From: Candidatus Uhrbacteria bacterium
GTDB taxonomy: Bacteria; Patescibacteriota; Patescibacteriia; UBA9934
DNA: 64,000 nt
NCBI GenBank assembly: GCA_963822405.1
Contig: CAWGHH010000002.1
Coordinates: 107,703 to 171,702, forward strand
Direction of reading: 5' to 3'
Below are positions 8,390-59,705 of the stretch, piece by piece. How positions within the stretch are numbered: the first letter of the stretch is position 1; every line of letters begins with the position of its first letter. The notes beneath the pieces were generated by a model. The model made no database searches. It was not told the DNA's origin and worked only from the letters and a program-made list of their open reading frames with translations. The translations under genes were made by a program, and so were the position numbers.

Positions 8390-8773
8390 TTATTGCAACG
8401 TTTCAGTTACTTGAGTGACCGCAAAGGGACTTGTGTCCACATCTACCAGCACTCCGCGCGTGATATTGCTTTGAGTGAGTTTGATTAGACCAGAGCGAGT
8501 TGTTCCGTTCGTCGTTACAGTAAGAGTGCAGGTGGCTGTGCCGATTGGAATAGTAGCCGGTGCGTAGCTACTATTTTTCTTGATCTGAATTATAAACTCG
8601 TCAGTGCATCCCATGACAGAAGACCTTACTTTAAGGGCGATTACTTCGTCACTTGCGTCTATGAATCCTCCCATGCTCCCTTGAGCAAGAATAGAAAAAG
8701 CCAGTAGGCTGGCCGAGCCAATAATTAGCATGGTGTAGAGCAGGATAACGCCTTTGGGCGAGCGGACAAGCAT
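8390..8773 (-). CDS. Minor pilin / pseudopilin-like protein (last gene of the pilus operon)
   Basis: 127 aa. N-terminus MLVRSPKG-VILLYTMLIIG has a prepilin-like leader and hydrophobic helix but lacks Glu at +5. Abuts the upstream pseudopilin gene. Confidence 0.45.
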   Translation of the reverse strand: MLVRSPKGVILLYTMLIIGSASLLAFSILAQGSMGGFIDASDEVIALKVRSSVMGCTDEFIIQIKKNSSYAPATIPIGTATCTLTVTTNGTTRSGLIKLTQSNITRGVLVDVDTSPFAVTQVTETLQ

Positions 8774-8774
8774 A

Positions 8775-9326
8775 TTAATTTTCGGTAGTGTGTCCGGAGA
8801 GCGCGAACGTGGTATCAGCCGAGAAAGAAGAGTGACGATACGCGCCTACTCCAGGGTTCAGCATGGCCATATCATAACTGATTCTTAAACCGGATAATGT
8901 TGAACCAGTACGGATAACATCAATGCGCCATTGGGTTACGTCGATTTCTGGATCCGTCAGATAGGTTGCTGGGTTCGCACCTTTTTGCATCCGTAATCTC
9001 CGAACGTTTTGTGGCGCTCCAGTAAAAGTTACCGCCACAGTTGGTCGATCAATGGTCACGAGCTGACCAGTAGCATCCAGAAATTTCAAGACTCCATTGT
9101 CATTAGATAAAGTAGACGTACTAACATTAATCGCGTCAGCTTCAGTGAGTGAATTCTGCAACTCAAGAAACATGACTGAGGCAGTTTGTTCCATTCGAGA
9201 TCGGGCATCAAGAAGTGTATAAGTCTGCCAGAGGTTCACTAGAAACATTACGAAGGTCGGAAGAACGATCATGACAATCCCAACGTAGAGAATGGTTTCA
9301 AGCAGCGTTGTGCCTTTGTTGTTCAT
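8775..9326 (-). CDS. Type IV pilus minor pilin / pseudopilin
   Basis: Start placed at MNNKG-TTLLETILYVGIVMIVL (ATG at 9326), which is a class III signal with G-1 and E+5. It lies 1 nt after the upstream stop. The longer tabulated ORF (to 9374) adds a non-conserved extension. Confidence 0.55.
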   Translation of the reverse strand: MNNKGTTLLETILYVGIVMIVLPTFVMFLVNLWQTYTLLDARSRMEQTASVMFLELQNSLTEADAINVSTSTLSNDNGVLKFLDATGQLVTIDRPTVAVTFTGAPQNVRRLRMQKGANPATYLTDPEIDVTQWRIDVIRTGSTLSGLRISYDMAMLNPGVGAYRHSSFSADTTFALSGHTTEN

Positions 9327-9327
9327 A

Positions 9328-10209
9328 CTAAATTGGATTGAACGAGCCTGAGGTGAAGACAGAGCCATCCGCAAAAGTTACGGACATGGTCATTGAGGCA
9401 CCGGTCATTAGGTCTTCAAATTGTCCTTTGGTGATTTGCGAAGTTTGCCCAGGTGCCATGCTGAAATTTTGAATGTCGAGCACGGTTCCTGAGTGAACAC
9501 TATGGCCGGTTGGTGTGCCGGGGCCAGACGTTGACCAGACCTTAGAGTTATCAATAAAGAGTTGCTCAAATTCAGAACCGTTACTCCAGGTGAAGCTTAT
9601 TTTGTCGATTGTTACACTCGTCCCACCGGTGTTAGTAAAATATAGTTGTCTAAGCTGTTTACCTCCGTAGAATTGTGCAGCATCAACGGCAAAGCTTACT
9701 TGTCCCGCTTGTCTTGGGGCAAAGCAAGTTCCGGTCGGGTTCAGCCAGTTTGTTCGTAGCGTGGTGGTTGAAGTAGTGTGAGTTCTGCCGGCGGTATCAG
9801 TCCAGCTGGTTTCGCTGATAATTTTTTTGCTATCTGGATCAATGGTGCCGCCTGAAGCGACCACGCCACAAGAAGCATCTCGGTAGACTGAAGAGATTTT
9901 TACAATTCTGGTTGAGCCATCAGCTAATGTTTGCGGGCCGTTGGTCGTCAGCGTCCACGAGGGAGCAATAAAGGTCAAGGCGCCGGTTAGAGTATTCGTC
10001 AGACTTGCGAAAGAAATTGTTCTAAGCGCCTCTGCGCCTTCATTTGCACTCCATAGCGACTGTTGAATCTCTTGGGCTCGGTCACTACCGCGGTTAGTGA
10101 CGACCACAAAACCAATGAGAGCCGTCATGAAAGATGCGGTCACGCCAATTGCTACTATAGCCTCAAGAAGCAACGAACCTTTTTGAATAGCATTTCTTGA
10201 GTTACGCAT
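9328..10209 (-). CDS. Type IV pilus minor pilin / pseudopilin
   Basis: 293 aa. MRNSRNAIQKG-SLLLEAIVAIGV is a prepilin leader with E+5. Start and stop are coupled to neighbouring genes. Confidence 0.55.
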   Translation of the reverse strand: MRNSRNAIQKGSLLLEAIVAIGVTASFMTALIGFVVVTNRGSDRAQEIQQSLWSANEGAEALRTISFASLTNTLTGALTFIAPSWTLTTNGPQTLADGSTRIVKISSVYRDASCGVVASGGTIDPDSKKIISETSWTDTAGRTHTTSTTTLRTNWLNPTGTCFAPRQAGQVSFAVDAAQFYGGKQLRQLYFTNTGGTSVTIDKISFTWSNGSEFEQLFIDNSKVWSTSGPGTPTGHSVHSGTVLDIQNFSMAPGQTSQITKGQFEDLMTGASMTMSVTFADGSVFTSGSFNPI

Positions 10210-10212
10210 AGG

Positions 10213-10707
10213 TTATTGACGGTTAACAAAACCGTCCGGAGTAACGGTTAGCACACGCGTGGTGTCATACCAGCCGAGCGAGATCGAACCGTATTGAGCA
10301 GTGGCGCCGGACAGCGGGCTAAAAACTATCTCATGGTCATTTGTAGTATTTGGTGCCACTCCACTAAAATCGACGGCCAAAAAGTGGATGTTGTTGCTGA
10401 CTGTATAGATATCGTCACAAGCTATATCTCTGGTGGCGTAGGTGGCTCCGCAAAAAATAGTGACAGTCGTGGTTGCTCTGGTGCTTTCATTATAGGGTAT
10501 ATAAACCCCCCAAGAAGTACCTCCTAATCCGTGGCGAGCTTTGCGGGCGGCGGTCGACAGGATGTGGAGTATCTCGCGGTCGCTGGCACTTGAGGCTACG
10601 GATTGTTGAAATTTTGTTAAGGCTATTCCGGAGATCGAAAAAAGAATCCCAAATACACCAAGGGTGATAATGATTTCAAGAAATGTAAATCCTTTTGGGT
10701 TTTCCAT
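10213..10707 (-). CDS. Type IV pilus minor pilin / pseudopilin
   Basis: Start placed at MENPKG-FTFLEIIITLGVFGIL (ATG at 10707), the canonical N-methylation motif GFTxxE. It is 1 nt from the pilC stop. Confidence 0.6.
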   Translation of the reverse strand: MENPKGFTFLEIIITLGVFGILFSISGIALTKFQQSVASSASDREILHILSTAARKARHGLGGTSWGVYIPYNESTRATTTVTIFCGATYATRDIACDDIYTVSNNIHFLAVDFSGVAPNTTNDHEIVFSPLSGATAQYGSISLGWYDTTRVLTVTPDGFVNRQ

Positions 10708-10708
10708 G

Positions 10709-11791
10709 TTAGATTGAACCGACCACTTGATAGATAGGGGTAATGATCGAGAAGGCAAGTACAGCAACCATCAGTCCAATCCCGACAATCATAATAGGCT
10801 CAATAAGTGTGGTAACGTTTTTTGTGGCCTCGTCTATTTCTTGTTCGTAGAAATTCGCTAGATAGATGAGCATCTCTCCTAGGGTGCCAGTCTCCTCGCC
10901 GACGCGAATTAGACGCAAGGCAATAGGTGGAACTAGATAATTATTCGAGGTGAGAGCCAGGGTGATTGTTTTTCCTTCAGAAACGATAGTTTGCATTTTA
11001 GTAAAGAGACGCCTGTAATAGAAATTTTTAATCACGGACACGGTCACTGGTAGGGCTTCATCAAGTGGCATTCCGGTATTGAGTAAGGTACCGAGAAGTC
11101 GCATGATTCTGGCGAGGTTAGTATTTCTGACAATTTTTCCTAGAACTGGAACATGCAGTGTTAAGAAGTGGGTGATTGGTTTTACAAAAGAAAAATTCCG
11201 GATGAATAAGAAGATGATAGTTGAGGCGATCACTACGCCTGCGATTAAAATCCCATAATGTTGAACTACAAAGGCTATCCAAATCAGAACTTTTGTAGTC
11301 CAGGGCAGTGGCACGTCGAGAGATTTGAATAGCGCGGTAATATTTGGCAATACGAACACCACAATCCCGGTACAGATAATAATAGCGCTCATGAAAACAA
11401 TAGACGGATACATCATGGCGCTCCTAATTTTTACCCGGAGGTCATGTTCTTTCTGCATCTGATCGGCCAGTTGTTGAAGATTGCCTTGGAGAGTACCAGA
11501 GTTTTCACCAGCTCGAATGAGGTTTATGAAGGTGGTAGAGAAAACATGCGGAAACTTTTCAAGACCGTCAGCCAGTGTGTTGCCGCTTCTGACGGATTCT
11601 CTGAGGCTGGTTAAGATTGTTTTGAGGGAGCCTTTTGATTGACTCGAAAGAATCTCAATGGCGTCATCAATCGGTAGGCCAGATTTAAGGAGAACGGCTA
11701 AATATTTAGTAAGTAAAAGTTGCTCGGTTAGCGAAAGCTGAACCGACATTTTAGTGTATAGACTTACGGATGGGAGTTGTTTTTCGACCAT
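10709..11791 (-). CDS. pilC: Type IV pilus assembly platform protein PilC (GspF family)
   Basis: 360 aa with duplicated T2SS-F domains (LLKSGLPIDDAIEIL... and LLNTGMPLDEALPV) and 3 TM regions. Confidence 0.85.
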   Translation of the reverse strand: MVEKQLPSVSLYTKMSVQLSLTEQLLLTKYLAVLLKSGLPIDDAIEILSSQSKGSLKTILTSLRESVRSGNTLADGLEKFPHVFSTTFINLIRAGENSGTLQGNLQQLADQMQKEHDLRVKIRSAMMYPSIVFMSAIIICTGIVVFVLPNITALFKSLDVPLPWTTKVLIWIAFVVQHYGILIAGVVIASTIIFLFIRNFSFVKPITHFLTLHVPVLGKIVRNTNLARIMRLLGTLLNTGMPLDEALPVTVSVIKNFYYRRLFTKMQTIVSEGKTITLALTSNNYLVPPIALRLIRVGEETGTLGEMLIYLANFYEQEIDEATKNVTTLIEPIMIVGIGLMVAVLAFSIITPIYQVVGSI

Positions 11792-11794
11792 AAA

Positions 11795-13099
11795 CTATTC
11801 TTCCATGACGCGACTAAGTTCTTCTATGGTGGTTTCTTTGGATAATACTTTTCTCACGCCATCCTCCATGATAGTGGTCATGCCTTCTTTTTTTGCTAAC
11901 TCCTGAATTTCATCACTTGTTGCGCGCTTGTTGATTAGGCCTTGGATAGGCACGGAATTTTCTAGAACTTCATAAATACCAACTCGGCCTTTGTACCCGG
12001 TATCATTGCATTTTGTACAACCTTTTGCTTTTGCAATCTCGATTGTTTTTTTGTCTTTAAACAAGGCATCCGCCGTTTGTTTGTGCAGCATTTTCCTTCC
12101 TTCCTCGACGTTTAAGGTTTGTGTTTCGACACAATCTTTGCAGACGCGTCTAACTAGTCTTTGGGCGATAGCACAAATAAAAGTAGAAGAGATGAGGAAT
12201 GGTTCTACTCCCATATCAATAAGTCGAGGAATGCTGGTAGCCGAGTTATTAGTATGGAGAGTGGACAGGAGTTTGTGTCCTGTTAGCGCGGCGTTCACGG
12301 CAATCTTTGCTGTCTCTTCATCTCTAATTTCTCCAACCATGATGATGTCAGGATCTTGTCTTAATAGGGCTCGTAAACCGGTAGCAAAGGTTAATTTGGC
12401 CACGTGGTCAACTTGGCTTTGATTGACTCCTGGAATTTCAAATTCGACTGGATCTTCTATGGTAGCAATGTTTACTTCCCGTCTATTGATTACTTCAAGA
12501 ATGGCGTAAATACTAGTAGTTTTTCCGCTACCAGTTGGACCAGTAGCCAGAATCATGCCCCACGGTTTTTTAATAGCTCTTGTGATACGCGCCAAATCTT
12601 CTTCGCAGAAACCAAGCTGTTCAAGGGTTAATTGGTGCGATTGGCTCGAGAGAAGACGCAGAACTCCCTTTTCACCTAAGGAATCTGGGAGGATCGAGAC
12701 GCGAACGTCTACATCTCCAAGTGGGGAGGCGAATTTGAATCTGCCGTCTTGTGGGCCGTGATGCTCGTCAGTGCGCATTCTGGTTAAGATCTTGATACGA
12801 GCCACTAGCTGGGTATGGAGAGCTGTATCTAAAGTGAATTCATCATGAAGAATGCCGTCAATTCGAATACGAATAATGGCGTGATCTTTCCAGGGCTCAA
12901 GGTGGACGTCTGAGGCCCGAGCAGCATGGGCAAAGATCATGATCATTTCAAAGAGTCTGATGGCTGCATCTGAGGTGGTACCTGCGGTTGCCTTTACGAT
13001 GAGATCTTCAACATCTTTTTTTGACGGAAGTTTAGCAGTTGCAACTTTAGAGGTTTTTAAGGCTGGGGCGCTAATTTTAGTTTTTTTCTCGACGGCCAT
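11795..13099 (-). CDS. pilB: Type IV pilus assembly ATPase PilB (GspE family)
   Basis: Walker A GPTGSGKTT, Asp/His boxes, and a C-terminal tetracysteine motif (CKDC...CTKC). Likely start MAVEKK at 13099; the tabulated ORF extends to 13165. Confidence 0.9.
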   Translation of the reverse strand: MAVEKKTKISAPALKTSKVATAKLPSKKDVEDLIVKATAGTTSDAAIRLFEMIMIFAHAARASDVHLEPWKDHAIIRIRIDGILHDEFTLDTALHTQLVARIKILTRMRTDEHHGPQDGRFKFASPLGDVDVRVSILPDSLGEKGVLRLLSSQSHQLTLEQLGFCEEDLARITRAIKKPWGMILATGPTGSGKTTSIYAILEVINRREVNIATIEDPVEFEIPGVNQSQVDHVAKLTFATGLRALLRQDPDIIMVGEIRDEETAKIAVNAALTGHKLLSTLHTNNSATSIPRLIDMGVEPFLISSTFICAIAQRLVRRVCKDCVETQTLNVEEGRKMLHKQTADALFKDKKTIEIAKAKGCTKCNDTGYKGRVGIYEVLENSVPIQGLINKRATSDEIQELAKKEGMTTIMEDGVRKVLSKETTIEELSRVMEE

Positions 13100-13236
13100 A
13101 TATGCATTATTATAGTTGATCGACGGGCATTTTGTGATGGTGGGTGTGTATGAGGTTATGCACATTTAGTGATGGTTCGATCTCATGTTGGCAAATGTAG
13201 ATTATAATACGGTTATTCTTAACGAATGAATTTTCT

Positions 13237-13719
13237 ATGAAGAGCGCGCAAAGTGAGGCCAAAGGTTTTACACTTATCGAATTGTTGATCGTGATCGCTA
13301 TCATTGTAGTGCTCGCTGCTGCAGTTTTCGTGGCTTTGAACCCAGCTAAGCGTTTTGCTGATGCTCGTGATTCACGTCGTTCAAGCGATGTTACGAACAT
13401 TGTTGCGGCTTTGAAGACGGCGCAGGTTGATAACGGCGGAGCTTACATTGCTTCGGTGGTAGCTATGACCGCAGATACGGCCTATGTTATTGGTACTGAT
13501 GCTACCGGCTGTAATACAGGCTGCACTGCCCAGACAACTAATGCCGCGTGTGTTGATCTCACAGCTCTGCAGACGGCTGGTTACTTGGGTAGCATTCCGA
13601 TGGATCCTTCGAGCGGTGCCGCCACAAAGACAGACTACTATTTGATGAGAAACACTTCAGGCACGCTTACGGCTGGTGCTTGTGACCCAGAGAACGCACC
13701 TATCTCACTTAGCCGATAA
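13237..13719 (+). CDS. pilA: Type IV major pilin (PilA-like)
   Basis: MKSAQSEAKG-FTLIELLIVIAIIVVLAA is a textbook prepilin leader and N-methyl-Phe/Glu5 helix. Cys pairs could form a C-terminal disulfide loop. Divergent from pilB, with a strong downstream terminator. Confidence 0.8.
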   Translation: MKSAQSEAKGFTLIELLIVIAIIVVLAAAVFVALNPAKRFADARDSRRSSDVTNIVAALKTAQVDNGGAYIASVVAMTADTAYVIGTDATGCNTGCTAQTTNAACVDLTALQTAGYLGSIPMDPSSGAATKTDYYLMRNTSGTLTAGACDPENAPISLSR

Positions 13720-19677: not shown

Positions 19678-21273
19678 GTGCCGTACTTTGTACTATTTTT
19701 TGTGTCTATGAAAATGAAATTCGTCGCGTTCGTTTCGCTCGTCTTGATTTCTGGAATGCGTTTTTCAATACAGCCAGTTTACGCCAGGATATTTCCGCCT
19801 CCAGCGACTATTGTTTCCGCTACCATGCTTGATGTTGATAACAACGGAAAACTAGATCACGTCGATATTGTGTTTTCTGATGATATTAATAGTGCGTCAA
19901 TAGATTTGAGCGATTTTTCAGTAACGGCCTGTACATTTTTTTCAGCCGACTATGTAGTGAATGATTTGAGCCTTCCGTATGCCAATGTAATATCTTTGGC
20001 TATTACTGAAATTGCTGATGGGATGGACACCGGAGTTACTTGTTCAGTAAATGTTTCCGGGATTGCTGATATTTATGATAATGCGGTTGCTGGTTCAGTG
20101 GTTTCTGTCGATGGCGCAGCACCGGTCATCGAGCGGATTCGATACACTGATGACAATTACAACGGAAAGATCGATCGTCTAATCGTTGATTACTCTGAGG
20201 AGTTAGATGCTGAAACTATTGCAAGCTCAGATAATTTCTCGATTGCTAATGACGGCGACTTTGACGGCACTACTGTAGCTTCCAGCGGATCTCTAGAAGT
20301 TGGTGCTGAACTTGGCTGGATCAGCTTGCCACTTAACGAGGGAACCGTTATGGACACGCGTGATGATTCCGCTACTTTCACGCTAGCTACGAACGACGGT
20401 TACAGCATTCGTGACGTTGCCGGCAATACTGACGATCTGATTCGTGAACAGTCTTTGGCTACGATGGATGATATTGCCAAGCCAGAGATTAAGTCCGTTT
20501 CTTACGAGGATGAAAACGGTGACGGTAAAATTGACGGGCTAACCATGGCCTTCACTGAAACTGTTTCATCTGGAAGCTATCTTTGGCCAAATCAGTTGAC
20601 TATTGCTGAGGATGCTGGTTTTACGGATTTACAATTTACATCAGACTCCGAGGATTTGATTAGCGAGAATGCTGATTCGATTTATATTCCGATGACAAAA
20701 TCAAGCGTTGTTTCAACTCATACTGATCTACCAATCGTACTCGGCGTTGGGTCTGACGAAACTGGTTATTATCTACTGGACTTGGCGGGGAACGGTTCCG
20801 GATCTTCTCCTGAAAATTTTGCAGTTACGCAAACACTTGATGGAGCTGCACCGATTCTCGTTTCTTCTGTTCCGGCAGACGAGGGGACGATGAGAAATCT
20901 GAACGCTAATGTTACCTTGAAGTTTTCTGAAGATCTTGATCTAGAAACGGTTAATACGAGTACGGTATATTTCAATGAAGAGGGTGTGTCGTTTATAGTT
21001 GAAGATGCGGTTGATCATTCGGTAGTTACTTTAAATCCGGACGGAGCCTTGGATCCGTTAACTACTTATTACATTAGAATTGTTAGCACTCGTGGAATTG
21101 CTGATCCGGCTGGTAATTATGTCGGCGGTCAAACTCTCATGTTCACCACAACCGACGGTAAGACGAGCGGGTCTGCCGGCTACATCGCGCCGACCAACTT
21201 TGGTTCCAACGACGTAATTCCAGTATCTGAGCCAGCTGGTGAGGTGTCCTCGGAGCTACTGATACAGCTGTAG
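19678..21273 (+). CDS. Secreted repeat protein with Ca-binding-like DxNGKID motifs; likely N-terminal part of a frameshifted gene
   Basis: Signal peptide MKMKFVAFVSLVLISGMRFSIQPVYA. Three ~100-aa repeats containing DNNGKLDHVDIVFSDDI, DNYNGKIDRLIVDYSEEL and DENGDGKIDGLTMAFTE. The reading frame stops at 21273, but a different frame stays open from 21243 to 21764 and continues with homologous sequence. Confidence 0.55.
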   Translation: MPYFVLFFVSMKMKFVAFVSLVLISGMRFSIQPVYARIFPPPATIVSATMLDVDNNGKLDHVDIVFSDDINSASIDLSDFSVTACTFFSADYVVNDLSLPYANVISLAITEIADGMDTGVTCSVNVSGIADIYDNAVAGSVVSVDGAAPVIERIRYTDDNYNGKIDRLIVDYSEELDAETIASSDNFSIANDGDFDGTTVASSGSLEVGAELGWISLPLNEGTVMDTRDDSATFTLATNDGYSIRDVAGNTDDLIREQSLATMDDIAKPEIKSVSYEDENGDGKIDGLTMAFTETVSSGSYLWPNQLTIAEDAGFTDLQFTSDSEDLISENADSIYIPMTKSSVVSTHTDLPIVLGVGSDETGYYLLDLAGNGSGSSPENFAVTQTLDGAAPILVSSVPADEGTMRNLNANVTLKFSEDLDLETVNTSTVYFNEEGVSFIVEDAVDHSVVTLNPDGALDPLTTYYIRIVSTRGIADPAGNYVGGQTLMFTTTDGKTSGSAGYIAPTNFGSNDVIPVSEPAGEVSSELLIQL

Positions 21274-21764
21274 ATCCAATCTCAACAGATGTTCGAGTAG
21301 GCGCTGATGATAACGGCGTCATAGCCGGTGACTATATCCGTGGAACTTCTTGGACTACGGTTTATTACGTTGACGCTGACATGATTCGTCATCCAATCAT
21401 TGATCACCAGACATACTTTACTTACGAGAATTCATGGGACAAAGTGATTGTGTTGGCTGACGAGAAGTTACGCGATTACCCAATGGGGAGCTTATTGCTT
21501 CCTAAGGCGGGAACAGTTTTAGTGAAGTTTGCGTCTATGAATACGGTCTATGCACTTGAGGCTGGAGCGAACGGCGCGACAGTTTTGCGCCTTGTTCCTA
21601 GTGAGGCCATGGCAGCAACTGTGTTTGGTGGCCACTGGGTAGATTACGTGATTGATTTGCCTGTTGTTCTCTATCCGCACTTTAAGAAGGGAGCGGCGGT
21701 TGATTCAAACTTCGTTGTTGACCTGAGCAAGATGAAGACTCGTTTGTCACTAAACAATAATTAA
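21243..21764 (+). pseudogene. Frameshifted C-terminal portion of the 19678 gene (conserved C-terminal domain shared with the 1863-aa protein)
   Basis: The alternate frame is open from 21243 and reads ...IAGDYIRGTSWTTVYYVDADMIRHPIIDHQTYFTYENSWD...LLLPKAGTVLVKFASMNTVYALE...VLRLVPSEAMAATVFGGHWVDYVIDL. This aligns along its length with residues ~1690-1815 of the 27190-32733 protein (GDYMRAQNIDTVYCIDA...MLPKAGVTLVKFRSSPIVYRVIE...VLRPLASEAVAKLNYGENWSDYIIDV). A 1-nt shift near 21245-21270 would fuse the two ORFs. Confidence 0.55.
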
Positions 21765-21802
21765 GATTCTAGATAAAACAGCACTCCGAAAGGGGTGCTG
21801 TT

Positions 21803-22573
21803 TTGTGTTACAATATGTCTTGTATGGTTATCTTCCCGTCGCGTACGTCAAAAAATGTTGTACGCGAAGAATCTTCGGCTAGAATTCCTCTCACAGAGGA
21901 AGAGCGATTGCAATATAAGCAAGGATATAGACCGGCGCGGATGAGTGATATCACCTGGCGTATTTTTCGGATAATGGCGGAGTTTGTGGAGGGGTTTCAA
22001 TTTCTTTCGACTACTAGTAATGAAGTTTCGATCTTTGGTTCTGCTCGAATTCCACCTGGAAACAAGTGGTATGAGGAGGCGGTTAAGTTAGGTTCACTTT
22101 TAGGAAAGAATGGTTTTACGGTGGTGACCGGTGGGGGTCCTGGAATCATGGAGGCGGCTAACAAGGGGGCGTTTGAAGTCGGCGCTCGTTCGGTCGGCTT
22201 GAACATTCAGTTACCAAAAGAACAGCGTATTAATCCTTACGTGACAGAGTCTCGTGCTTTCTATTATTTCTTTACGCGCAAAGTAATGCTTGCAGCTTCG
22301 GCGCAGGCCTATGTCTATTTTCCCGGCGGTTTTGGAACGCTCGATGAAATGTTTGAAATTCTAACTTTGATTCAAACCGGTAAGTCGGAAAAAGTGCCAA
22401 TGGTGCTTGTGGGTAAGGAATATTGGGGCGAACTTTGGGACTGGCTTCGTGACCGGGTTTATGATAAGATGGATGCCATTGAGCGCGCGGATTTAGACCT
22501 CGTGCGCATCGTGGATACGGCAGAGGAGGCGTATGCGATTGTTTCTAAATCGACCGAACGACACTTCTTTTAA
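21803..22573 (+). CDS. LOG-family protein (cytokinin riboside 5'-monophosphate phosphoribohydrolase-like, TIGR00730)
   Basis: Motifs VVTGGGPGIMEAANKGA and YVYFPGGFGTLDEMFEILTLIQTGK. The true start may lie downstream of the tabulated one. Confidence 0.8.
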   Translation: MCYNMSCMVIFPSRTSKNVVREESSARIPLTEEERLQYKQGYRPARMSDITWRIFRIMAEFVEGFQFLSTTSNEVSIFGSARIPPGNKWYEEAVKLGSLLGKNGFTVVTGGGPGIMEAANKGAFEVGARSVGLNIQLPKEQRINPYVTESRAFYYFFTRKVMLAASAQAYVYFPGGFGTLDEMFEILTLIQTGKSEKVPMVLVGKEYWGELWDWLRDRVYDKMDAIERADLDLVRIVDTAEEAYAIVSKSTERHFF

Positions 22574-27096: not shown

Positions 27097-27189
27097 AGTC
27101 GATTTCTCGTTCAGTCATCCTGAGCTTCGCGAAGGATCTGATTGGATAACTCCCATAATCTTGATGAATATACGCTATACTATTCGCAT

Positions 27190-30100
27190 ATGCGTCTAGT
27201 ATTTTTTCGTTGGAAAAGCAAGGTCGTAGCTGTCTTGGCGCTCGTCGCCATGCTTGGCCTCATGACTTCATCTCCTCAACCAGCCTTTGCAGCTGTTATC
27301 ACCTGGGATAACGGCGGGGGAGATGGACTTTGGAGTACTTGTACAAACTGGCTAGGAGACGTTTGTCCAGGCACCGGTGATATTGCTACATTTAATCCAG
27401 CCGTATCGGATACCTCGTCAACAATTGATACACTATTCGGTGATTTCTTTTCGGCCACTGTCGGTGGTGTAAATATAATGACGGGTTTTACTGGAACTAT
27501 CACTCAGGCTCGGGCGGTCAATATTGGGACTAGCGGTTGGTCGCAGGATGGAGGGACACTTAGTGGAAGTGCTGATCCAGCTCATTATTTTGCGGTGAAT
27601 AACGGAACCTTTACACTTTCTAACGGTACATTCACTGCTCCGTCGGCTACGGCTCTTGAGCTGAATACTGCGGCTTTTGTAATCACTGGCGGTACGTTTG
27701 ATCCGAATGGTGGAACGTTGGAGGTTGTGGGTACGGCCAGTTCAGTGGATGTTCTGAACTCCTTTACCTTTTCAAACCTGACTGTACAAATGACCGGTTC
27801 GTCGAATATTTTTACGATTGCGGCTGGTGACACACTTATTGTTCCAGGGACGTTTGCTTTTATGAACGGTAAGATTAACGGCGGAACGGTTGAAACTCAG
27901 GCTGCTATGAGTACGGGCAGTCACCCTGTTTACCCTGACGGTGGTACGGGGACCATCATTATTGACGGACCAGCCGTCAGAACAATTACTTTGTCGACCA
28001 ATGCAGCTGGCGGTGTTTCATTGCCGAATGTTGTTTTGAATGCTGCGGATGTAACCATATATTCAGGAGCGAACGCGGCATTTACCAGCCTAACAATTCA
28101 GGCCGGAGCTATTCTCACGGAAGCTCGTGCCAGAAGTTTCTCGGTAGCTGGTAACTATCTGCAAAGTGGTGGCTCCGTAGACCTGAGTAATCTCCTTAAC
28201 GTTAACCTTTCCACTTTTTCAGTTACTGGTTTATTGTCAGTGACTGGGGCGACAGCTAGCCTTATTTTGGGAGAGACAACTCAAGTAGCTGGAGGTTGGA
28301 CACATACCGGAACGTCTACGATTAACGTTGGAACTGGACTTGTGACCATGCGACTGACTTCCGATATTAATCTTACCGGCGATGCTACATTTAATGACCT
28401 CATCATCAATTTTTGCTCGCCGAGCTTAGTGAATCATGCTGTTACGGTTGCTACTGGAGTCAACAATCAATTCATCGTGAATGGCAAGGCTTGGATAGAG
28501 GGTTGCGGATTCAATAACTTACTATTTTTGCAGAGCAACTCAAGCGGAGTGCAGGCAGACGTTGATTTTGCTGGTCGTACCACTATGTCTCGCGTAGTCA
28601 TGAAGGACATTAACAATTACGACGCAACTCCTGTTCAGTGTGTCAATCGATGTATGGATCGGGGAGATAACGCAGGTGTTACTTTTCTTCCCGAGAATCG
28701 GTTTATTTCCGTCGGAGCTGCTTACGCCGCGGCCGGGAACGCAACCACTGATACTTCGGAAAGTGGCGATTCAGTTCGAGTTGATGTTGTTTTGCGGTTA
28801 GCACCAACAGCCACAGTGACTATTCCAGTTGCTACTTCTGATGCAACAGAAGCTGAGTCGAACGTTAGTTCGTTAATTTTTACCACGGACAACTGGAATG
28901 TTCCGCAGACCGTTACTGTGACAGGTATAGAAGATTTGATCGACGATGATAGTATCTCCTACTCGCTAAATATCGGTTCGGCCACTTCTACCGATTTGGG
29001 ATATGACGGCCTTTCGATTAGTGTTCCTTTGAAAAATCGTGACAATGATACGACCGAGGGAAGGGTCGATTTCCAGAATGGTGAAGACTTAAATATCCTG
29101 TCTGGAGACATTCTTTCAGATGGCAGCAGTTTGAAATATAAAAATTGGAGCTCTTCGGATGTATATGATTCCAACGGCGCACTTGCCACGGTTCATGACA
29201 ATGTGATTTTCGATCCAGATGCCAATATGTTCTGGGAAGCTGATCAATCCAATAATCGGCTTCTAAAATTTGATCCGACTGGCGTGATAGATGTTACAGC
29301 TCCAATTGCCTCGCCAGCCAGTCCTTCTAAAGTTGTATATGACTCAACTCATTTAGCTATTTGGACTACATTTTCTGGTAGCTCAAACATTGTTAAGCTG
29401 GAATCTTTAAACGGAACGCCTTTTGATACCGATCTAGCTACGAGCACCTATCCAGTTGGTGGCATACCGGCATTTATAGCGTACGACGCAACTCAAGATT
29501 CAGTTTGGATTTTGACTGATGCCTCAGTACTTGTAGAGATTGATGCGGCGACTGGTGGTGTGTTGCATTCGTACGCAACATTAGTAAATGCAAGTGAACT
29601 AGTTTATGACAGCGTGAATAATAAACTTTGGACATTGACCAGGCCATTTAATTCATATTATGTTCTCGAGAAGATTGATCCTTTGACCGGGCTGACAACT
29701 AATACGTATCCGCTCCCAACGGTGACTGGAGATATTCAGGGGACAGTTCGTTTAGCTTTTGATGTAACGAATAACATAGTTTGGGTTTCAGATGCTCCGA
29801 GCAATGAGAGTGACGGTGCGGCTTGGGATAGCGTGGATTTTTTGATGGGTATTAATGGAGTTGATGGGACAGTTCGAGGAGTCTACGATTCAGACTTTTT
29901 AAGCCTAGGTTACCCAGTGGTGAATGAATATGATCAATTGGTGCATTACGGCTTACATTCATTCGCCATCACCGATGGGAGTCGACAAGGTGTGATAGGT
30001 GCTGAGATTGAAGCTGTTTCCGGTACTGGAGAAATGTGGAGTAATGGTAATTTGTACTATCACACGCTCTATTGGCCAAATGCTTATACAACAGCTACAA

Positions 30101-32733
30101 CAGAATATGGTGGTTTACTTCCTACCACTCTTTGGAGCACGTTAACGGAATATCCAAATGCAGAAATTACCAACGGTTCCTCTCTTTACACTTTTTCATT
30201 TAATAGTGGTTCAAGCTACTACATTTGGACCGGTTCAGTCTGGCGCGTGATCGCTTCTAGCTTAGCGGCTGATCATGGCAATGGAGACGGGGATTGGTAT
30301 TATAGAGATTCTGCCAACGGGTGGACATTCGACGCTACGGCAACTGCAACTAGTGCTATTCAGAACGCCATTCGTTACGCCAACGGAAGCAATGATATGA
30401 CTGGTGCAACAGCCCAGTCCTTGGCGCCCGGTACTTGGGAAAGTGCGCCCGGTTGGGTTGCATTGACTCCATTTCTTGCCTCTACCTCTTACTACACTCC
30501 AGACACGCTTATCTACACGGATACTTGGGCTAGTTTAACTGATGTTACGCTGAACGAAACTCTGGCTGGGCAAGGAGCTTATTACGCATTTTCATTTACG
30601 GACAGTGAAAAATTCTCCATTTGGACCGGTTCCGCTTGGCGAGTCATTGCCAGTTCTCGGACGGCTGATCACGGAGGAGCTGAATGGACCTGGTATTTCC
30701 GTGATGGTGCTAACGGCTGGGTAAATACTTTTGATACAAGTGGCTTTGACGACGCCATTCATTCTTTGAATTATGCAATTAGCGGTGTTGGATTCACGGG
30801 AGTAGTCCAAAATCAAATGACGGGCACTACGGTCAATGCATTGACCCAGGCTAACTTGAACGCGGCCGGTGGTTGGACTTTAGCTATGCCAATAGATGTG
30901 AGCGCCACACTTAAGACAACAAGCAGGCTCGTCACACCGTCCGTTCAGGATGCGACCTTCTCGTTTACTACTGGTTCGACTCCTGGAGTAGCAATTTCTG
31001 AGACCGCGAGTTCAACGGATGTCACAGAAGGCGGGGCGACGGACACGTATTCCGTTGTTTTAGATTCTTTGCCAACCGATAGTGTTGTAGTCACGGCCAC
31101 AGGCAACGCGGATGTTTCCGTTTCTGGACCATTGACCTTTACCGTTGGCAACTGGAACGTTCCGCAGGACATAACTGTTACCGCAGTTAATGATTCTATA
31201 GACGAGGTAAGTCTTGAGAATGCAACTATTACTCACGCTGCGGCTTCAACCGATGTTAATTATGATAGTGGTCTCTCGGTGGCTAGCGTAACGGCACACG
31301 TGACTGATAATGATGTTGCCGGTATTACGGTTGGCGCGATTTCTGGCCATACAACTGAGGCGCTCGTTACAGCAACATTTACTGTGGTTCTTGATACGCA
31401 GCCAACCGCTGATGTTTCAATCGGCGTCACGTCTGATGATACTTCTGAGGGCACGGTCTCACCGGCTTCACTCACGTTCACAAGCGGTAATTGGTCAACT
31501 CCTCAAACTGTTACCGCGAGTGGTGTAAATGATTCTCCGGTTGACGGCGATATCACATATCACATTGTTCTTGCGGCTGCTACTTCAGCCGACACGTTTT
31601 ATAGCGGAATAAACCCAGCTGACGTAACCGTGATAAATGATGATAACGACGTTCCATCGTCTGGAGGTAGTTCGTTTGTGCAGTTGCCATCGCCTACGTC
31701 TCCAGATTCTCATGCAGTTTCTGCGCCTACTTGTACGTCGGCCAGCTTGGTTAATGTGCTCATGTCGGCTCATAACGCAACTTCGTACATGCTCTCTATC
31801 GATGGGGCATTTGATACGGAATCGTGGCTCACATTCACACCCAACGTAAATGATTCAACTTGGGTAATCCCAACCATGAATCTTGGCGTGATGTTGCCGG
31901 AACCAGATGGGGAATACCTTATCTCTGTTCGGTATCGATCATCATCAGGAAACGTTTCATCGACTGTTTCAACTCAGGTACAGCGGGATATCGCTGGCGG
32001 TTGCGTGAATCCTTCCGTCATTCCTACGCCAGCAGAGCCAGCACCAACCGAAAATCAACCAACTCCAGGTGAGCCGGGTACTGGCACTACAATAATCGAA
32101 TATCAACCAGGATGTTTAAACATCAGCCGTCCAAAAGACCTAACAAGAAACATTATTGGTCGAGGTCTCTCGCCAATTACCGGCAAAGAAGAAGACATTA
32201 TTCAGCCTCTCCCGGGTGATTACATGCGCGCCCAGAATATCGACACTGTCTACTGTATTGATGCCTCGTCACGTCGACGACCATTTATTGACGAGACCAC
32301 TTATTTTACCTTCGAGCGTTCATTTGACCCGGTAGTTTTTGTGACAGACGCTACTCTCCCTACTCTGCAAATGGGTCCGCCAATGTTGCCTAAGGCCGGA
32401 GTGACATTAGTTAAATTCCGTTCCTCCCCAATTGTTTATCGAGTAATTGAAAACCCAGGAGATACAGATCATCGTGTGCTCAGGCCTCTCGCAAGTGAAG
32501 CTGTGGCCAAACTTAACTACGGCGAAAACTGGTCAGACTATATTATTGACGTAGACGAAAGTCTGAATGCCTGGTTCATTATCGGCGAGCCCATCACTGG
32601 CCTAGAACAAGAAAGCCTCAGCACCTTCCGTCCCCGAGATCTCCTCAATGAAGTCAGTAAATCAGTCGAGCAACAGCTCTCAAACTTCACTAACTTCCTC
32701 GGCGCAATTTACAATCGTATATTTGCGCACTAG
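27190..32733 (+). CDS. Very large secreted surface/adhesin-like protein (1847 aa from M17) with β-propeller-like and Ig/Calx-β-like tandem repeats and a conserved C-terminal domain
   Basis: Signal peptide MRLVFFRWKSKVVAVLALVAMLGLMTSSPQPAFA. Blade-like ~40-aa repeats around residues 680-900 (VYDS...W motifs). A duplicated ~95-aa unit (Y[TA]FSF...IWTGS[VA]WRVIASS..ADHG...W[YT][YF]RD[SG]ANGW). Three consecutive ~110-aa repeats (TVTA[TV]NDS..D) near residues 1290-1620. The C-terminal 125 aa are homologous to the 21243-21764 frame. Confidence 0.7.
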   Translation: MRLVFFRWKSKVVAVLALVAMLGLMTSSPQPAFAAVITWDNGGGDGLWSTCTNWLGDVCPGTGDIATFNPAVSDTSSTIDTLFGDFFSATVGGVNIMTGFTGTITQARAVNIGTSGWSQDGGTLSGSADPAHYFAVNNGTFTLSNGTFTAPSATALELNTAAFVITGGTFDPNGGTLEVVGTASSVDVLNSFTFSNLTVQMTGSSNIFTIAAGDTLIVPGTFAFMNGKINGGTVETQAAMSTGSHPVYPDGGTGTIIIDGPAVRTITLSTNAAGGVSLPNVVLNAADVTIYSGANAAFTSLTIQAGAILTEARARSFSVAGNYLQSGGSVDLSNLLNVNLSTFSVTGLLSVTGATASLILGETTQVAGGWTHTGTSTINVGTGLVTMRLTSDINLTGDATFNDLIINFCSPSLVNHAVTVATGVNNQFIVNGKAWIEGCGFNNLLFLQSNSSGVQADVDFAGRTTMSRVVMKDINNYDATPVQCVNRCMDRGDNAGVTFLPENRFISVGAAYAAAGNATTDTSESGDSVRVDVVLRLAPTATVTIPVATSDATEAESNVSSLIFTTDNWNVPQTVTVTGIEDLIDDDSISYSLNIGSATSTDLGYDGLSISVPLKNRDNDTTEGRVDFQNGEDLNILSGDILSDGSSLKYKNWSSSDVYDSNGALATVHDNVIFDPDANMFWEADQSNNRLLKFDPTGVIDVTAPIASPASPSKVVYDSTHLAIWTTFSGSSNIVKLESLNGTPFDTDLATSTYPVGGIPAFIAYDATQDSVWILTDASVLVEIDAATGGVLHSYATLVNASELVYDSVNNKLWTLTRPFNSYYVLEKIDPLTGLTTNTYPLPTVTGDIQGTVRLAFDVTNNIVWVSDAPSNESDGAAWDSVDFLMGINGVDGTVRGVYDSDFLSLGYPVVNEYDQLVHYGLHSFAITDGSRQGVIGAEIEAVSGTGEMWSNGNLYYHTLYWPNAYTTATTEYGGLLPTTLWSTLTEYPNAEITNGSSLYTFSFNSGSSYYIWTGSVWRVIASSLAADHGNGDGDWYYRDSANGWTFDATATATSAIQNAIRYANGSNDMTGATAQSLAPGTWESAPGWVALTPFLASTSYYTPDTLIYTDTWASLTDVTLNETLAGQGAYYAFSFTDSEKFSIWTGSAWRVIASSRTADHGGAEWTWYFRDGANGWVNTFDTSGFDDAIHSLNYAISGVGFTGVVQNQMTGTTVNALTQANLNAAGGWTLAMPIDVSATLKTTSRLVTPSVQDATFSFTTGSTPGVAISETASSTDVTEGGATDTYSVVLDSLPTDSVVVTATGNADVSVSGPLTFTVGNWNVPQDITVTAVNDSIDEVSLENATITHAAASTDVNYDSGLSVASVTAHVTDNDVAGITVGAISGHTTEALVTATFTVVLDTQPTADVSIGVTSDDTSEGTVSPASLTFTSGNWSTPQTVTASGVNDSPVDGDITYHIVLAAATSADTFYSGINPADVTVINDDNDVPSSGGSSFVQLPSPTSPDSHAVSAPTCTSASLVNVLMSAHNATSYMLSIDGAFDTESWLTFTPNVNDSTWVIPTMNLGVMLPEPDGEYLISVRYRSSSGNVSSTVSTQVQRDIAGGCVNPSVIPTPAEPAPTENQPTPGEPGTGTTIIEYQPGCLNISRPKDLTRNIIGRGLSPITGKEEDIIQPLPGDYMRAQNIDTVYCIDASSRRRPFIDETTYFTFERSFDPVVFVTDATLPTLQMGPPMLPKAGVTLVKFRSSPIVYRVIENPGDTDHRVLRPLASEAVAKLNYGENWSDYIIDVDESLNAWFIIGEPITGLEQESLSTFRPRDLLNEVSKSVEQQLSNFTNFLGAIYNRIFAH

Positions 32734-32853
32734 GTGGATAACGATGTGCGTCTTACCCCCCCTGGTATGATTGTCACATGTATCGGCTTCGTCATTGCGA
32801 GGGTGTCGTCCGACGACAGCCCGAAGCAACCTAATAAATAATTTAATCGCATT

Positions 32854-33576
32854 ATGAAACATCTCTTCGCTCTTCTTCTCCTCTCCCTCTCCTTCGCTCC
32901 TCTCGCCGCGCAGGCGGATATGTTGCCGGATGGAGAGCATGGCGTGAATAACTGCGTAAGTATTGACAACGTTGCTTCGTTTCCAGAATATACTTTTTTT
33001 GTTCACGTTCAAGCGAACTTTCCCGGTACATTCGAAATCGGCACTAAGCCGACCTGTTTCTTGCGGGGGAGAGCGGGTATTTTTGGCGTTCTAACTGAGG
33101 ATTTGTCTAAGATAGTTAAGCTTTCGCCGGATGACGAACAGTTTGGCGATTGGCCAAGCCAGGGTTCTAATCCGCCACTGTTCTACGTCGCTCCAAGATT
33201 TTCTGTCGATCTTCCTTCGAGTTTGCCGGACACAGGTAGAACCGCCAAAATTGATTATTTGATTCACGTGCGTGACATTGGCATTGGTCAAGGCAATAAA
33301 TCATCGTTTAAGTATTTATCTGCTTCCATTGTCAACACAAGTTATTTCGATACAGAAGGCAATAGAGTCGATGAATTTGATCATCTAGCTTCGCTTGCTT
33401 CAGGCGTCGACAACTCTTTAGTTAATGATACAATTTTGCCAAATCCACCAGCCTTCACGACCACAGAGTCCTCAGAGCTAGTGTCATCAACTTCTCCTCT
33501 CGCCCTCATCTGGATTGTGATCGTTTGTATGGGCGCATGTGTCCTCGCGATCGGTATCAAAACATGGAAGAAGTAA
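32854..33576 (+). CDS. Secreted protein with signal peptide and C-terminal TM anchor plus basic tail
   Basis: Signal peptide MKHLFALLLLSLSFAPLAAQA. C-terminus ...SSTSPLALIWIVIVCMGACVLAIGIKTWKK is a hydrophobic helix followed by KTWKK, i.e. a sortase/exosortase-substrate-like tripartite tail without LPXTG. Confidence 0.5.
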   Translation: MKHLFALLLLSLSFAPLAAQADMLPDGEHGVNNCVSIDNVASFPEYTFFVHVQANFPGTFEIGTKPTCFLRGRAGIFGVLTEDLSKIVKLSPDDEQFGDWPSQGSNPPLFYVAPRFSVDLPSSLPDTGRTAKIDYLIHVRDIGIGQGNKSSFKYLSASIVNTSYFDTEGNRVDEFDHLASLASGVDNSLVNDTILPNPPAFTTTESSELVSSTSPLALIWIVIVCMGACVLAIGIKTWKK

Positions 33577-34536: not shown

Positions 34537-35299
34537 TTACATGCGCAAATTATTCGTTTTCATTCTTGCTCTCTTATTTCTGTCCGTTGTTTGTGGATCA
34601 ATTTTACTCGTGGGCGAGCAACTGCCAAGGGGTTTAACTCGACGAACACTGAATATTGACGATCGTCATATTGTGTTAGACGTCATGAATCTCACCGCGC
34701 AGAACCTGTCCATGAGCCTTCTGAACGAACCGTCAAACGCGCGGAACGTTAAAGAATGGCGAGCGTCCACGAACGCCGATCTCGTGATTAACGGCACTTA
34801 CTTTGACGAAAAGAATACGCCAACTGGTTTTTATTCTTTAAACGGTTCAGCCAGTGCCACGCCTTGGCCAAGGGCTGAGGATCAGCTGGCAACCGCTAGT
34901 TATTCTTTCTTGGTCGAGGTAGTGGACGGTAAGCTCAAGCTTTCGTACTTGCCAGACAATCCACGCACCGAACCGTCAGTGAACGGTTTTTTGTCATTTC
35001 CAACTTTAATCGCTGATGGCAAGTCGCTCGTCACCGCGGATACTGGCTTGCGTGCCCAACGCACCATGTTGGCCCAGGATGCTTCGGGTGGCGTCTACTT
35101 GATCACTATTGAAAAGGGCAGCGTATCCTTGTTTGAGGCCGCTACTTGGCTTCTCGCGCAACCCGAAGGCTTCGTCCTCGCGGGGAACCTCGATGGTGGA
35201 CCGTCGACTGGCATTTCATACACAGATGGCAAGCGAGTTTTTGACGAATTTTCGGCTCCGATTCCAAATGTTATTATAGGTCAATCGTATGGAAAATAA
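34526..35299 (+). CDS. Phosphodiester glycosidase-like (DUF2233-like) secreted/membrane-anchored protein, tentative
   Basis: N-terminal TM/signal segment. Motifs LVINGTYFDEKNTPTGFY and LAGNLDGGPSTGISY resemble the phosphodiester glycosidase family. Judged from memory of the family consensus only. Confidence 0.4.
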   Translation: MDFNYMRKLFVFILALLFLSVVCGSILLVGEQLPRGLTRRTLNIDDRHIVLDVMNLTAQNLSMSLLNEPSNARNVKEWRASTNADLVINGTYFDEKNTPTGFYSLNGSASATPWPRAEDQLATASYSFLVEVVDGKLKLSYLPDNPRTEPSVNGFLSFPTLIADGKSLVTADTGLRAQRTMLAQDASGGVYLITIEKGSVSLFEAATWLLAQPEGFVLAGNLDGGPSTGISYTDGKRVFDEFSAPIPNVIIGQSYGK

Positions 35300-37376
35300 T
35301 GGTTATAGAGAGCTTAAGATGAATCCCGAGGCTAAAGATTTTAGAAAGTCATTAGCCGATTCTTTGATTAGGGCTAGGAACTATGATGGGTCGGAGGCTT
35401 CTTACGAAAGCCTGATGTCGTCTCTGGAGGTTTTAGAGGAAACAATTGAAACATCCCCATCTGTTGCTGGTCATACGGTTCGGGAGAAGGAGATTGACGC
35501 AGCGTTTAGATTTGCTCCCATTAGACCAAAAGAAATTAATGATGTTTTAGAAATAGCTGAGCAAGCGGGTCGACGCCGACTCCATAAAAGCTTGCAAGCG
35601 TCTCTTGAAGATGGCTCTGATATACCAAATGGAGCTTTTGTTATTCACAGACTAGATGGGGTTATTCTCCCGCCCGGTAATATTCCTGGGCCGATAGCCA
35701 CGAATGAGTCGGGTCATGGGTTTGACGCTGTTTCCTTTGAACCTAGGCTAGAAGAAATAATAAGATTATTGACTCAAATTCAGATATTTTCTGACGATGT
35801 TTTGATCAGCATCGGGGAAGTATCGAAAGATGTAGTACGTAGCAAGAGTTATGCAGTGATAGAAATTCCTAGGCTTAATAAAACAATCCTAGTTTGTGAT
35901 GAAGTTGGCGAGGCGACCTTTATAGTTAAATCTTTGGCGTCAGCGGCAAACTTCTTGTCCACTAGAAAGCAAGACCTAACCGAACATTTTGGCGAAGACA
36001 AGGTTGTTAGAATAATTAGAAATCAAGCCTGGGAGAAAAATATTTTAGCAGTTTTGAATGATGAAGAACTGAGATCCGGCAAGCCTCTCAATAAAGTTGA
36101 TGTTAAAGAATACGAGCTTGATCAAGTGCGAGCGGCGGTAATTAAGCAGTGTCCGCTTGATGAATGGTTGCACATGAACCAGACCGAGCGTGAGCAGAAG
36201 AGAATTGACGGCCTTAGCTTACGTATCATTGCAACTATTTTTAATGTTCCGAAGCCCAAAAATGAGTATTTAAAAATAACTCATTTCAATTTAGGAAAAG
36301 AAATATTCGGTCCAGATCAAAAACTAATTAAGGAAATTGACCTGTTAACTAGAAGTGCAGAAGATTGGAAAGCTAGCGTAAAGAAAAAACTACCAACCGC
36401 TGAGGAGTGGTTGCGCATCAGTGGTCCTAAAAGGCGAGAACTCGATTTCGATGGAAAGAAGATGTCTGCTCTTCAGGGGGCATTTGGAATTCAAAATAGC
36501 GTACTATCGAGCACAAAGGCCTTTGTTCAATTGGGAGCCGAGATTTATGGCCAGGATGATCCGGCTATTAAATCTGCTTACACCGCGGCCATCTTGAAGG
36601 AGTCGGCTCTAGAACGAACTCCGGAAGAATGGCGACAGGTTATCAGGGGCAGGATGGATGCCGGTGTGTGGCTTCAAAAAATGAGTGAGTCCGGTTTAGA
36701 GCTCAATATCGACGGCATCGGGATGCGAAAATTGGCAAAAAAATTTAGTGTTCAAATCGGTTCGCCTAAGGTCACTATGTTTAAATTAGGTTTCAATATA
36801 TACGGACTAGATAATGAGCAACTATCTACGGCGTATGAATTGTTCAATAAAGAGCAAGAGAGAATTACGTGGTCAAAGGAGCAGTGGAGGGAGCATTTAT
36901 TGATTAAGTGTCCTGATTTTGCGACTTGGATTGAAGATGGAAAAAATCTAAAAGTATTTAATAGCAAAGTTGGATATTTGCCGTGGATAGCTAAAAGTTT
37001 TGGTTTTCCGTGTGACGGAATTCATGATCGAAACACTTTTTCCTTGTTATCAAAAGAGCTCTACGGAGTAGATCCTAGGAATACGGAATCAGCCGTGGTT
37101 TGGCGAAAGAAGGCCGATGCGGAGACCTTGAATCGAACAACAGATGATTGGCGAGCCCGAATTAAGCAGGAATTTCCTACGGCGCAAGACTGGTTGGGTA
37201 TGACAAAAGAGCAGAAACGTCATTTTTATGTCGATAAACTGAGCATGCGAAGATTATGGAGAGCATTCGGCCTTAAAGATATTCCTTCGGACAGTAACAT
37301 CCATACGAACGCTAATTTTTTGGTTCTCGGTGAACAGATTTACGGAGTTGATGATCCAACCATTGTCAGCCGCTAA
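35289..37376 (+). CDS. Hypothetical 695-aa protein with five ~90-aa tandem repeats
   Basis: From ~residue 270 there are five repeats. Each begins with a Trp-containing basic segment (VRAAVIKQCPLDEWL / DWKASVKKKLPTAEEWL / EWRQVIRGRMDAGVWL / EQWREHLLIKCPDFATWI / DWRARIKQEFPTAQDWL). Each ends with a [FL]xLGxEIYGxD[DP] motif (FNLGKEIFGPDQ, FVQLGAEIYGQDDP, FKLGFNIYGLDNE, LLSKELYGVDPR, LVLGEQIYGVDDP). Confidence 0.55.
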   Translation: MENNGYRELKMNPEAKDFRKSLADSLIRARNYDGSEASYESLMSSLEVLEETIETSPSVAGHTVREKEIDAAFRFAPIRPKEINDVLEIAEQAGRRRLHKSLQASLEDGSDIPNGAFVIHRLDGVILPPGNIPGPIATNESGHGFDAVSFEPRLEEIIRLLTQIQIFSDDVLISIGEVSKDVVRSKSYAVIEIPRLNKTILVCDEVGEATFIVKSLASAANFLSTRKQDLTEHFGEDKVVRIIRNQAWEKNILAVLNDEELRSGKPLNKVDVKEYELDQVRAAVIKQCPLDEWLHMNQTEREQKRIDGLSLRIIATIFNVPKPKNEYLKITHFNLGKEIFGPDQKLIKEIDLLTRSAEDWKASVKKKLPTAEEWLRISGPKRRELDFDGKKMSALQGAFGIQNSVLSSTKAFVQLGAEIYGQDDPAIKSAYTAAILKESALERTPEEWRQVIRGRMDAGVWLQKMSESGLELNIDGIGMRKLAKKFSVQIGSPKVTMFKLGFNIYGLDNEQLSTAYELFNKEQERITWSKEQWREHLLIKCPDFATWIEDGKNLKVFNSKVGYLPWIAKSFGFPCDGIHDRNTFSLLSKELYGVDPRNTESAVVWRKKADAETLNRTTDDWRARIKQEFPTAQDWLGMTKEQKRHFYVDKLSMRRLWRAFGLKDIPSDSNIHTNANFLVLGEQIYGVDDPTIVSR

Positions 37377-59504: not shown

Positions 59505-59705
59505 AAGTGGGCGGAAGTATATAGGAAGGATTGAAATTAGTCAAAGTTTTTGGCACCCTTTTTGACAAACCCTAGCGTTTTTTGTAAGGTCACCCGTTCC
59601 TTGAATGTTTATCGAACACATTCCGGGTCCAAGTTAGCGGGGAGAAAGTTCGAGACAGTGAAAGTGACTAACATCTATTGGCGAATTCTCGCCAAGGAGG
59701 ACGTG

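Follow-up and report, generated by a model that had tools for sequence, protein, structure and literature searches.

A surface-protein gene split by a frame change, and an unnamed C-terminal domain of exported Patescibacteria proteins with a plausible anchoring role

In a 64,000-nucleotide stretch of the genome of a Candidatus Uhrbacteria bacterium (contig CAWGHH010000002.1, positions 107,703 to 171,702; hereafter the window, in whose own coordinates positions are given), an open reading frame (ORF) at 19678-21273 and a second frame at 21243-21764 are, by comparison with their orthologues, one gene, encoding a 694-amino-acid secreted surface protein with a Big_5 domain. The lesion that splits it is, where the alignments place it, a net 2-nucleotide insertion at 21244-21247, specific to this assembly or strain. 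Beyond the break lies a C-terminal domain of about 147 amino acids which recurs at the end of a 1863-amino-acid protein encoded in the same window and which represents a real, widespread and unnamed family. A role of this domain in anchoring is plausible, and the explanation that best accounts for the whole, a split gene together with a C-terminal domain that retains proteins on the cell surface, is probable, though held with some reserve. The parts of the reunited gene are the following, with reading frames given as the position modulo 3 (pos%3):

19678..21243, + strand: 5′ part of the surface-protein gene, frame pos%3=1, with the signal peptide MKMKFVAFVSLVLISGMRFSIQPVYA; identical to the protein records P0001 and P0199
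21244..21247, + strand: frame-break site; GTGTC in the window (21244-21248) versus GCC in the contig L004, net +2 nucleotides
21246..21764, + strand: 3′ part of the same gene, frame pos%3=0, with the linker VLGATDTAVDPISTDVRVGADDNGV, the C-terminal domain and the stop codon TAA at 21762-21764
21321..21500, + strand: domain repeat 1 (residues 27-86 of the 173-codon frame), predicted as three strands, helix, strand, helix, with a predicted local distance difference test score (pLDDT) above 90
21501..21698, + strand: domain repeat 2 (residues 87-152), with the most conserved motifs LPKAGxVLVK, LRxxxSE and WxDYVID
21699..21761, + strand: C-terminal tail of the domain, a conserved MKTRxxL helix; end of the protein, as in most family members
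21773..21806, + strand: intrinsic terminator hairpin, then a T-run (ΔG -23.5 kcal/mol, z=-6.7), 3′ of the reunited gene

The 173-codon frame opens at 21243, after the TGA at 21240-21242, and runs to the TAA at 21762-21764, and the upstream ORF of 531 amino acids ends at the TAG at 21271-21273, which gives an overlap of 31 nucleotides, in keeping with the roughly 30 of the original prediction made from the letters of the window. The 5′ part, whose last correct codon is the GAG at 21241-21243 and which has alternative starts at 19708 and 19714, contains three D-x-N/D-G-K-I/L-D loops and a Big_5 immunoglobulin-like domain at residues 388-491 of the 531-amino-acid ORF. The proposal that a single gene had been split by a frame change was borne out because both the orthologue P0002 (702 amino acids, Patescibacteria; 46% identity to the conceptually fused protein at 94% coverage) and the near-identical allele P0199 (694 amino acids, intact) are single ORFs across both halves. 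P0199 falls in the 90% cluster of P0001, the 519-amino-acid truncated call of the window gene from a 352,527-bp NCBI/ENA contig, and its source is the Logan assembly of run ERR12037365; its contig, L004, corresponds to window positions 17698-38326 at 99.97% identity, with 6 differences in 20.6 kb. Compared base by base, the two differ by GTGTC/GCC at 21244-21248, by single-nucleotide polymorphisms (SNPs) at 28577, 33051 and 35199, and by a 1-nucleotide indel at 37367. L006, a second contig of that run, matches 7,667 bp of the window at 100% identity. The locus of P0002 (L001) is syntenic with the window, with UDP-glucose dehydrogenase upstream of the gene and LOG, a 522-amino-acid ORF, a glycosyl hydrolase, Pyr_redox and DoxX downstream.

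The junction itself is spanned by ten aligned homologues with the consensus PxGEVLGxTD, of which the window carries the two sides in different frames, as EPAGEV and as VLGATDTA; P0002, P0003, P0061, P0062, P0064, P0067 and P0199 all cross it in one frame. Deletion of the GT at 21244-21245 produces GAG GTC CTC GGA, i.e., E-V-L-G, matching the orthologue consensus GEVLG, and the resulting ORF of 694 amino acids differs from P0199 by one residue only (V523A, the valine being the orthologue consensus), and a duplication of GT in the context GAG-GTC-CTC is the most economical path to the lesion. The strings that bear on the allele at window positions 21200-21300 are GAGGTGTCCTCGG, GAGGCCCTCGG and GAGGTCCTCGG. 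Downstream of the break, the residues that are invariant in the domain family are all intact, and no promoter or terminator signal was found between the two halves. A scan of metagenome contigs with the repaired protein returned no relative. As a separate observation, the indel at 37367 lies in the ORF at 35289-37376, whose product ends in ...IVSR* in the window (695 amino acids) and in ...IVAAKEAVRTK* in L004 (702 amino acids).

The second bearer of the domain in the window comprises three features:

27142..32733, + strand: gene for the 1863-amino-acid secreted protein, with the Met at 27190 as the likely start
32164..32193, + strand: linker motif GLSPITGKEE, corresponding to the family-wide G-x-SP-V/I-TGE motif before the domain
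32209..32649, + strand: second copy of the C-terminal domain (residues 1690-1836 of the 1863-amino-acid protein), followed by an extra tail of 27 amino acids

A shared domain of about 125 amino acids had been proposed for these two C-termini; the formal pairwise alignment was significant, and only the length needed revision, to about 147. In BLASTP, the 173-amino-acid frame (21243-21761) matched the 1863-amino-acid ORF with 59/147 identities (40%, E=7e-28), residues 27-171 aligning with residues 1690-1836. A tblastn search with both domains in six frames found these two copies only in the 64-kb window, and N-terminally the two proteins are related in nothing but their signal peptides. No Pfam family matched the 1863-amino-acid protein.

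The suggested profile search with the domain uncovered a large family: run exhaustively, it matched 3,914 cluster representatives (50% clusters) at E<=1e-3, of which 2,802 remained at E<=1e-10. Of the 52 proteins obtained by a word-indexed search, those with a source name were almost all from Patescibacteria. The retrieved proteins each carry one copy, which ends no more than 10 amino acids from the C-terminus in 175 of 191 (median 2) and is usually preceded by an acidic low-complexity linker and the G-x-SP(V/I)TGE motif. A Met start with a hydrophobic N-terminal stretch was present in 102 of 196, most of the others apparently being fragments truncated by contig ends. The domain is thus common to many unrelated exported proteins, in which it is terminal and stands behind a linker, and among the 134 members scanned its N-terminal partners were modules of extracellular type, namely Big_5 (53), Kre9_KNH (15), Peptidase_S8 (6) and PG_binding_1 (2), besides FG-GAP, Beta_helix, Calx-beta, Laminin_G_3 and TSP3. 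The domain itself had no match in Pfam, even at E<=10, or in NCBIfam, and a profile search of PDB sequences gave no match at E<=1, only spurious ‘Pizza’ repeat matches being seen. A scan of genome contigs with the domain alignment, whose search patterns were too narrow, found one locus (L003, from a Candidatus Uhrbacteria metagenome-assembled genome, or MAG) and did not recover the genome to which the window belongs. Among the papers listed by a literature search on wall-binding or surface proteins of Patescibacteria none evidently describes the domain, and a search for the accession of the run yielded no paper. At positions 5001-5894 of L005, another Logan contig of run ERR12037365, a domain-bearing gene encodes a protein of 297 amino acids (P0019), and a deposited 120-kb NCBI/ENA contig has a version of 173 amino acids (P0016) with an identical C-terminus; the 297-amino-acid form also has no signal peptide, and the gene may be another case of a truncated or split call upstream of the domain.

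An AlphaFold2 model of the domain, built on a 52-sequence alignment, had a mean pLDDT of 92.6. The secondary structure assigned to this model by DSSP (E, strand; H, helix) runs E31-34, E40-43, E49-52, H55-59, E68-71 and H73-76 in repeat 1, and E93-96, E102-107, E113-117, H121-128, (H132-135), E136-139 and H141-146 in repeat 2. Profile alignment of the two repeats with hhalign (E=8.6e-4 over 53 columns) supports an internal duplication, and the domain is modelled as two tandem units of about 60 amino acids, each combining a sheet of four strands with two helices, a fold of the EccB-repeat/PlyCB type. The repeats of EccB1 have been described as a four-stranded sheet with two helices, similar to PlyCB, and the model shows the order of strands and helices by which that fold was defined (PMC4769845). 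In BFVD, the two-repeat model matched a protein of the Rhodococcus phage Weasels2 (A0A1I9SA71, 115 amino acids, target-normalised template-modelling score 0.73, E=4.5e-5), and other matches were to Streptomyces phage LukeCage and a Chrysochromulina ericina virus protein; these viral matches are all uncharacterised.

Among known systems, the R1-R4 repeats of EccB, a component of ESX/type VII secretion (PDB 3x3m, 4kk7, 5cyu), have no detectable sequence relationship to the window domain, which shows no sequence homology to the T7SS_ESX1_EccB or PlyCB families. EccB carries an N-terminal transmembrane helix and four repeats around a core domain, whereas the window domain has two repeats at the extreme C-terminus of multidomain proteins that are exported by Sec, the named ones nearly all from Patescibacteria. 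With PlyCB and the cell-wall-binding domains of enterococcal phage endolysins (PDB 4f87, 6ist, 7d55) it shares a small beta-beta-beta-alpha module; these tether a functional partner to the Gram-positive wall (PMC4769845), a role that the window domain would share. The resemblance to SLH, CWB2, LysM, GW and choline-binding repeats lies in the arrangement of one conserved module, with tandem repeats and a flexible linker, on many unrelated secreted proteins, but there is no Pfam sequence match to them, the predicted fold is another one and the composition is acidic. The strict C-terminal position on diverse secreted proteins is also that of LPXTG/sortase, PGF-CTERM and type IX secretion system (T9SS) C-terminal domain (CTD) signals; in contrast to the first two, the window domain has neither a hydrophobic helix nor a basic tail and finishes in a hydrophilic end, MKTRxxLNxx, and, unlike the T9SS CTD, which is a beta-sandwich, it is predicted to be an alpha/beta fold of two repeats. 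A sortase, PGF-CTERM or T9SS sorting signal is not supported, given these hydrophilic C-termini and the alpha/beta two-repeat model. The domain is best filed as a new family-level variant among surface-retention modules, with a fold resembling the EccB and PlyCB repeats.

The proteins that carry the domain would be directed into the Sec export pathway by their N-terminal signal peptides, and the C-terminal domain, behind its flexible acidic linker, would then hold a variable N-terminal “business end” on the cell surface, presumably by binding non-covalently to a cell-wall component in the manner of SLH, CWB2, LysM or GW. The original prediction had offered an anchoring or sorting module; its first half is plausible because of the strict C-terminal position on many extracellular proteins and the weak fold resemblance to wall-binding modules, and its second half, in the sense of a sortase-type or cleaved sorting signal, is not supported. 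Several points weigh against the combined explanation of a split gene and surface retention. The domain is acidic (median pI 4.3), unlike many basic wall-binding modules, and its structural scores are weak, and wall binding by EccB itself has never been shown (PMC4769845). A peptidoglycan hydrolase partner was present in 0 of the 134 scanned family members, and no homologue of the domain was found in phage GenBank genomes (by tblastn) or in IMG/VR, a weak negative as few phages of Patescibacteria are known; with no autolysin or phage lysin bearing the domain, the classic corroboration for a wall-binding module is missing. As for the break, the difference between the window and L004 is complex (an indel and an adjacent substitution) and compatible both with an error and with a real allele. 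A different role, rather unlikely in our estimate, would be that the domain is not a self-anchor at all but serves to bind host or partner cells in epibiont attachment, to form oligomers or an S-layer lattice, or as a recognition tag for export or processing. This would suit the acidic composition, the oligomeric action of PlyCB-like modules (PMC4769845), and the frequent epibiont habit of Patescibacteria (PMC13622651). The conserved G-x-SPVTGE motif before the domain could likewise be a processing site, and on the members with PG_binding_1 a second wall-binding module might be redundant. However, the presence of one invariant module at the very C-terminal end of numerous unrelated ectodomains is the hallmark of retention modules such as SLH, CWB2, LysM and GW, there is no hydrophobic tail or sortase-like motif, and high conservation across divergent lineages is more in line with a ligand that is conserved on the cell itself than with host ligands, which vary. 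A more ambitious proposal would make the domain, as a tandem wall-binding unit like those of EccB and PlyCB, the general module by which Patescibacteria retain or attach proteins at their surface, so that it would define the displayed surfaceome of these ultra-small bacteria, and would make GTGTC a real segregating variant that turns a tethered adhesin-like protein into a released one; this is unlikely.

Two origins of the insertion, an error in the consensus and a real allele of very recent date, are rated about equally likely. An artefact in the assembly or consensus of the deposited MAG, for which the chances fall just short of even, would mean that the gene of the organism is intact; an intact ORF is indeed present in an independent assembly of the same population, there is no decay in the domain downstream of the break, the second inter-assembly indel (37367) likewise changes a protein end, and the deposited P0016 is shorter than its Logan counterpart P0019. 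Yet the MAG is otherwise highly accurate relative to the Logan contigs (0 differences in 7.7 kb; 6 in 20.6 kb), the change is not a simple homopolymer error, and removal of GT leaves GTC (Val, the orthologue consensus) where L004 has GCC (Ala), which suggests a distinct real haplotype. The other reading, which stands on the same nearly even footing, is that of a real strain-level loss-of-function allele of very recent origin, which would give a 531-amino-acid secreted protein that lacks the C-terminal domain and is released instead of retained. The complexity of the difference, including an adjacent T/C polymorphism, is what separate haplotypes would show, the SNPs between the assemblies at 28577, 33051 and 35199 look real as well, and de Bruijn assemblers are unable to invent k-mers that are absent from the reads; nevertheless, the allele is seen in one assembly only, and the share of indels, two of the six differences, is higher than natural variation in coding DNA would lead one to expect. 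Programmed -1/+2 ribosomal frameshifting or slipped-strand phase variation, both raised in the original prediction, would control the amount of the anchored form, and would suit a surface-protein gene that is broken precisely within the linker leading to the domain and whose frames overlap by 31 nucleotides. However, no X XXY YYZ slippery heptamer is present in 21150-21273, the region 21200-21300 has no homopolymer of at least 4 (for which a check near 21240-21275 had been advised) and no dinucleotide repeat of at least 3 units, GTGT being all there is, and RNA structure downstream of the break is no better than in shuffled sequences (minimum free energy -33.8 versus a shuffle mean of -34.5, z=0.22). 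The frameshift is also not conserved, the orthologues and the 99.97%-identical assembly L004 being in one frame. With neither frameshift signals nor a conserved break, both mechanisms were rejected as highly improbable. Even less credence goes to an independent gene for a stand-alone domain protein, starting at ATG 21381, although a 127-amino-acid ORF is so annotated in the deposited record (P0200) and free wall-binding subunits exist for PlyC and the enterococcal lysins. This ATG lies inside repeat 1, past its first two strands in the AlphaFold model, and would give a truncated fold; there is no Shine-Dalgarno sequence at it and no promoter upstream, and conservation in the same frame extends upstream of it.

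Two further candidates were set aside. Recoding of UGA was ruled out, as several more stop codons interrupt this frame ahead of the TGA at 21240, where it is the other frame that shows the coding signal. A diversity-generating retroelement target was ruled out by the lack of a template repeat near the variable region; no DNA repeats within 18-35 kb involve 21.2-21.8 kb or 32.2-32.7 kb.

Other features of the window were also noted. The gene for the 1863-amino-acid protein and the next ORF of 240 amino acids (window 27142-33576) are absent at the syntenic positions 16881-17991 of L001, where DoxX is directly followed by an RNase_H_2 gene, and this absence implies that a giant surface-protein gene was inserted or deleted between relatives. 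Inside the giant gene there is a 69-nucleotide direct repeat (30186-30254 and 30582-30650, 71% identity), which reflects a repeated protein module (…SFxxxxxxxIWTGSxWRVIASS…). By synteny with L001, positions 8390-13719, which precede the surface-protein genes, hold a cluster resembling those of type IV pili and type II secretion systems (T2SSE ATPase, T2SSF platform, N_methyl pilin). Immediately upstream of the gene for the primase DnaG, at about 52.97-53.45 kb as located through the identical stretch L006 4457-4932, there is a HicB/HicA antitoxin-toxin pair, and at 59550-61691 (+ strand) a GC-rich island (0.62 versus about 0.47) encodes a 713-amino-acid protein with seven Cu-binding_MopE (PF11617) motifs, with an equally long shadow ORF on the opposite strand.

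The frameshift is relevant only for annotation: the deposited entry splits the gene into the 519-amino-acid P0001 and the 127-amino-acid P0200, and these records should be merged. The domain, on the other hand, marks thousands of exported proteins of Patescibacteria; neither Pfam nor NCBIfam has a model for it, and its fold is predicted with confidence. Should it be an anchor to the wall or surface, it would provide a simple sequence-based means of cataloguing the proteins displayed by these mostly unculturable organisms, which live attached to other cells, and would lend independent support to the hypothesis that repeats of the EccB type bind the cell wall.
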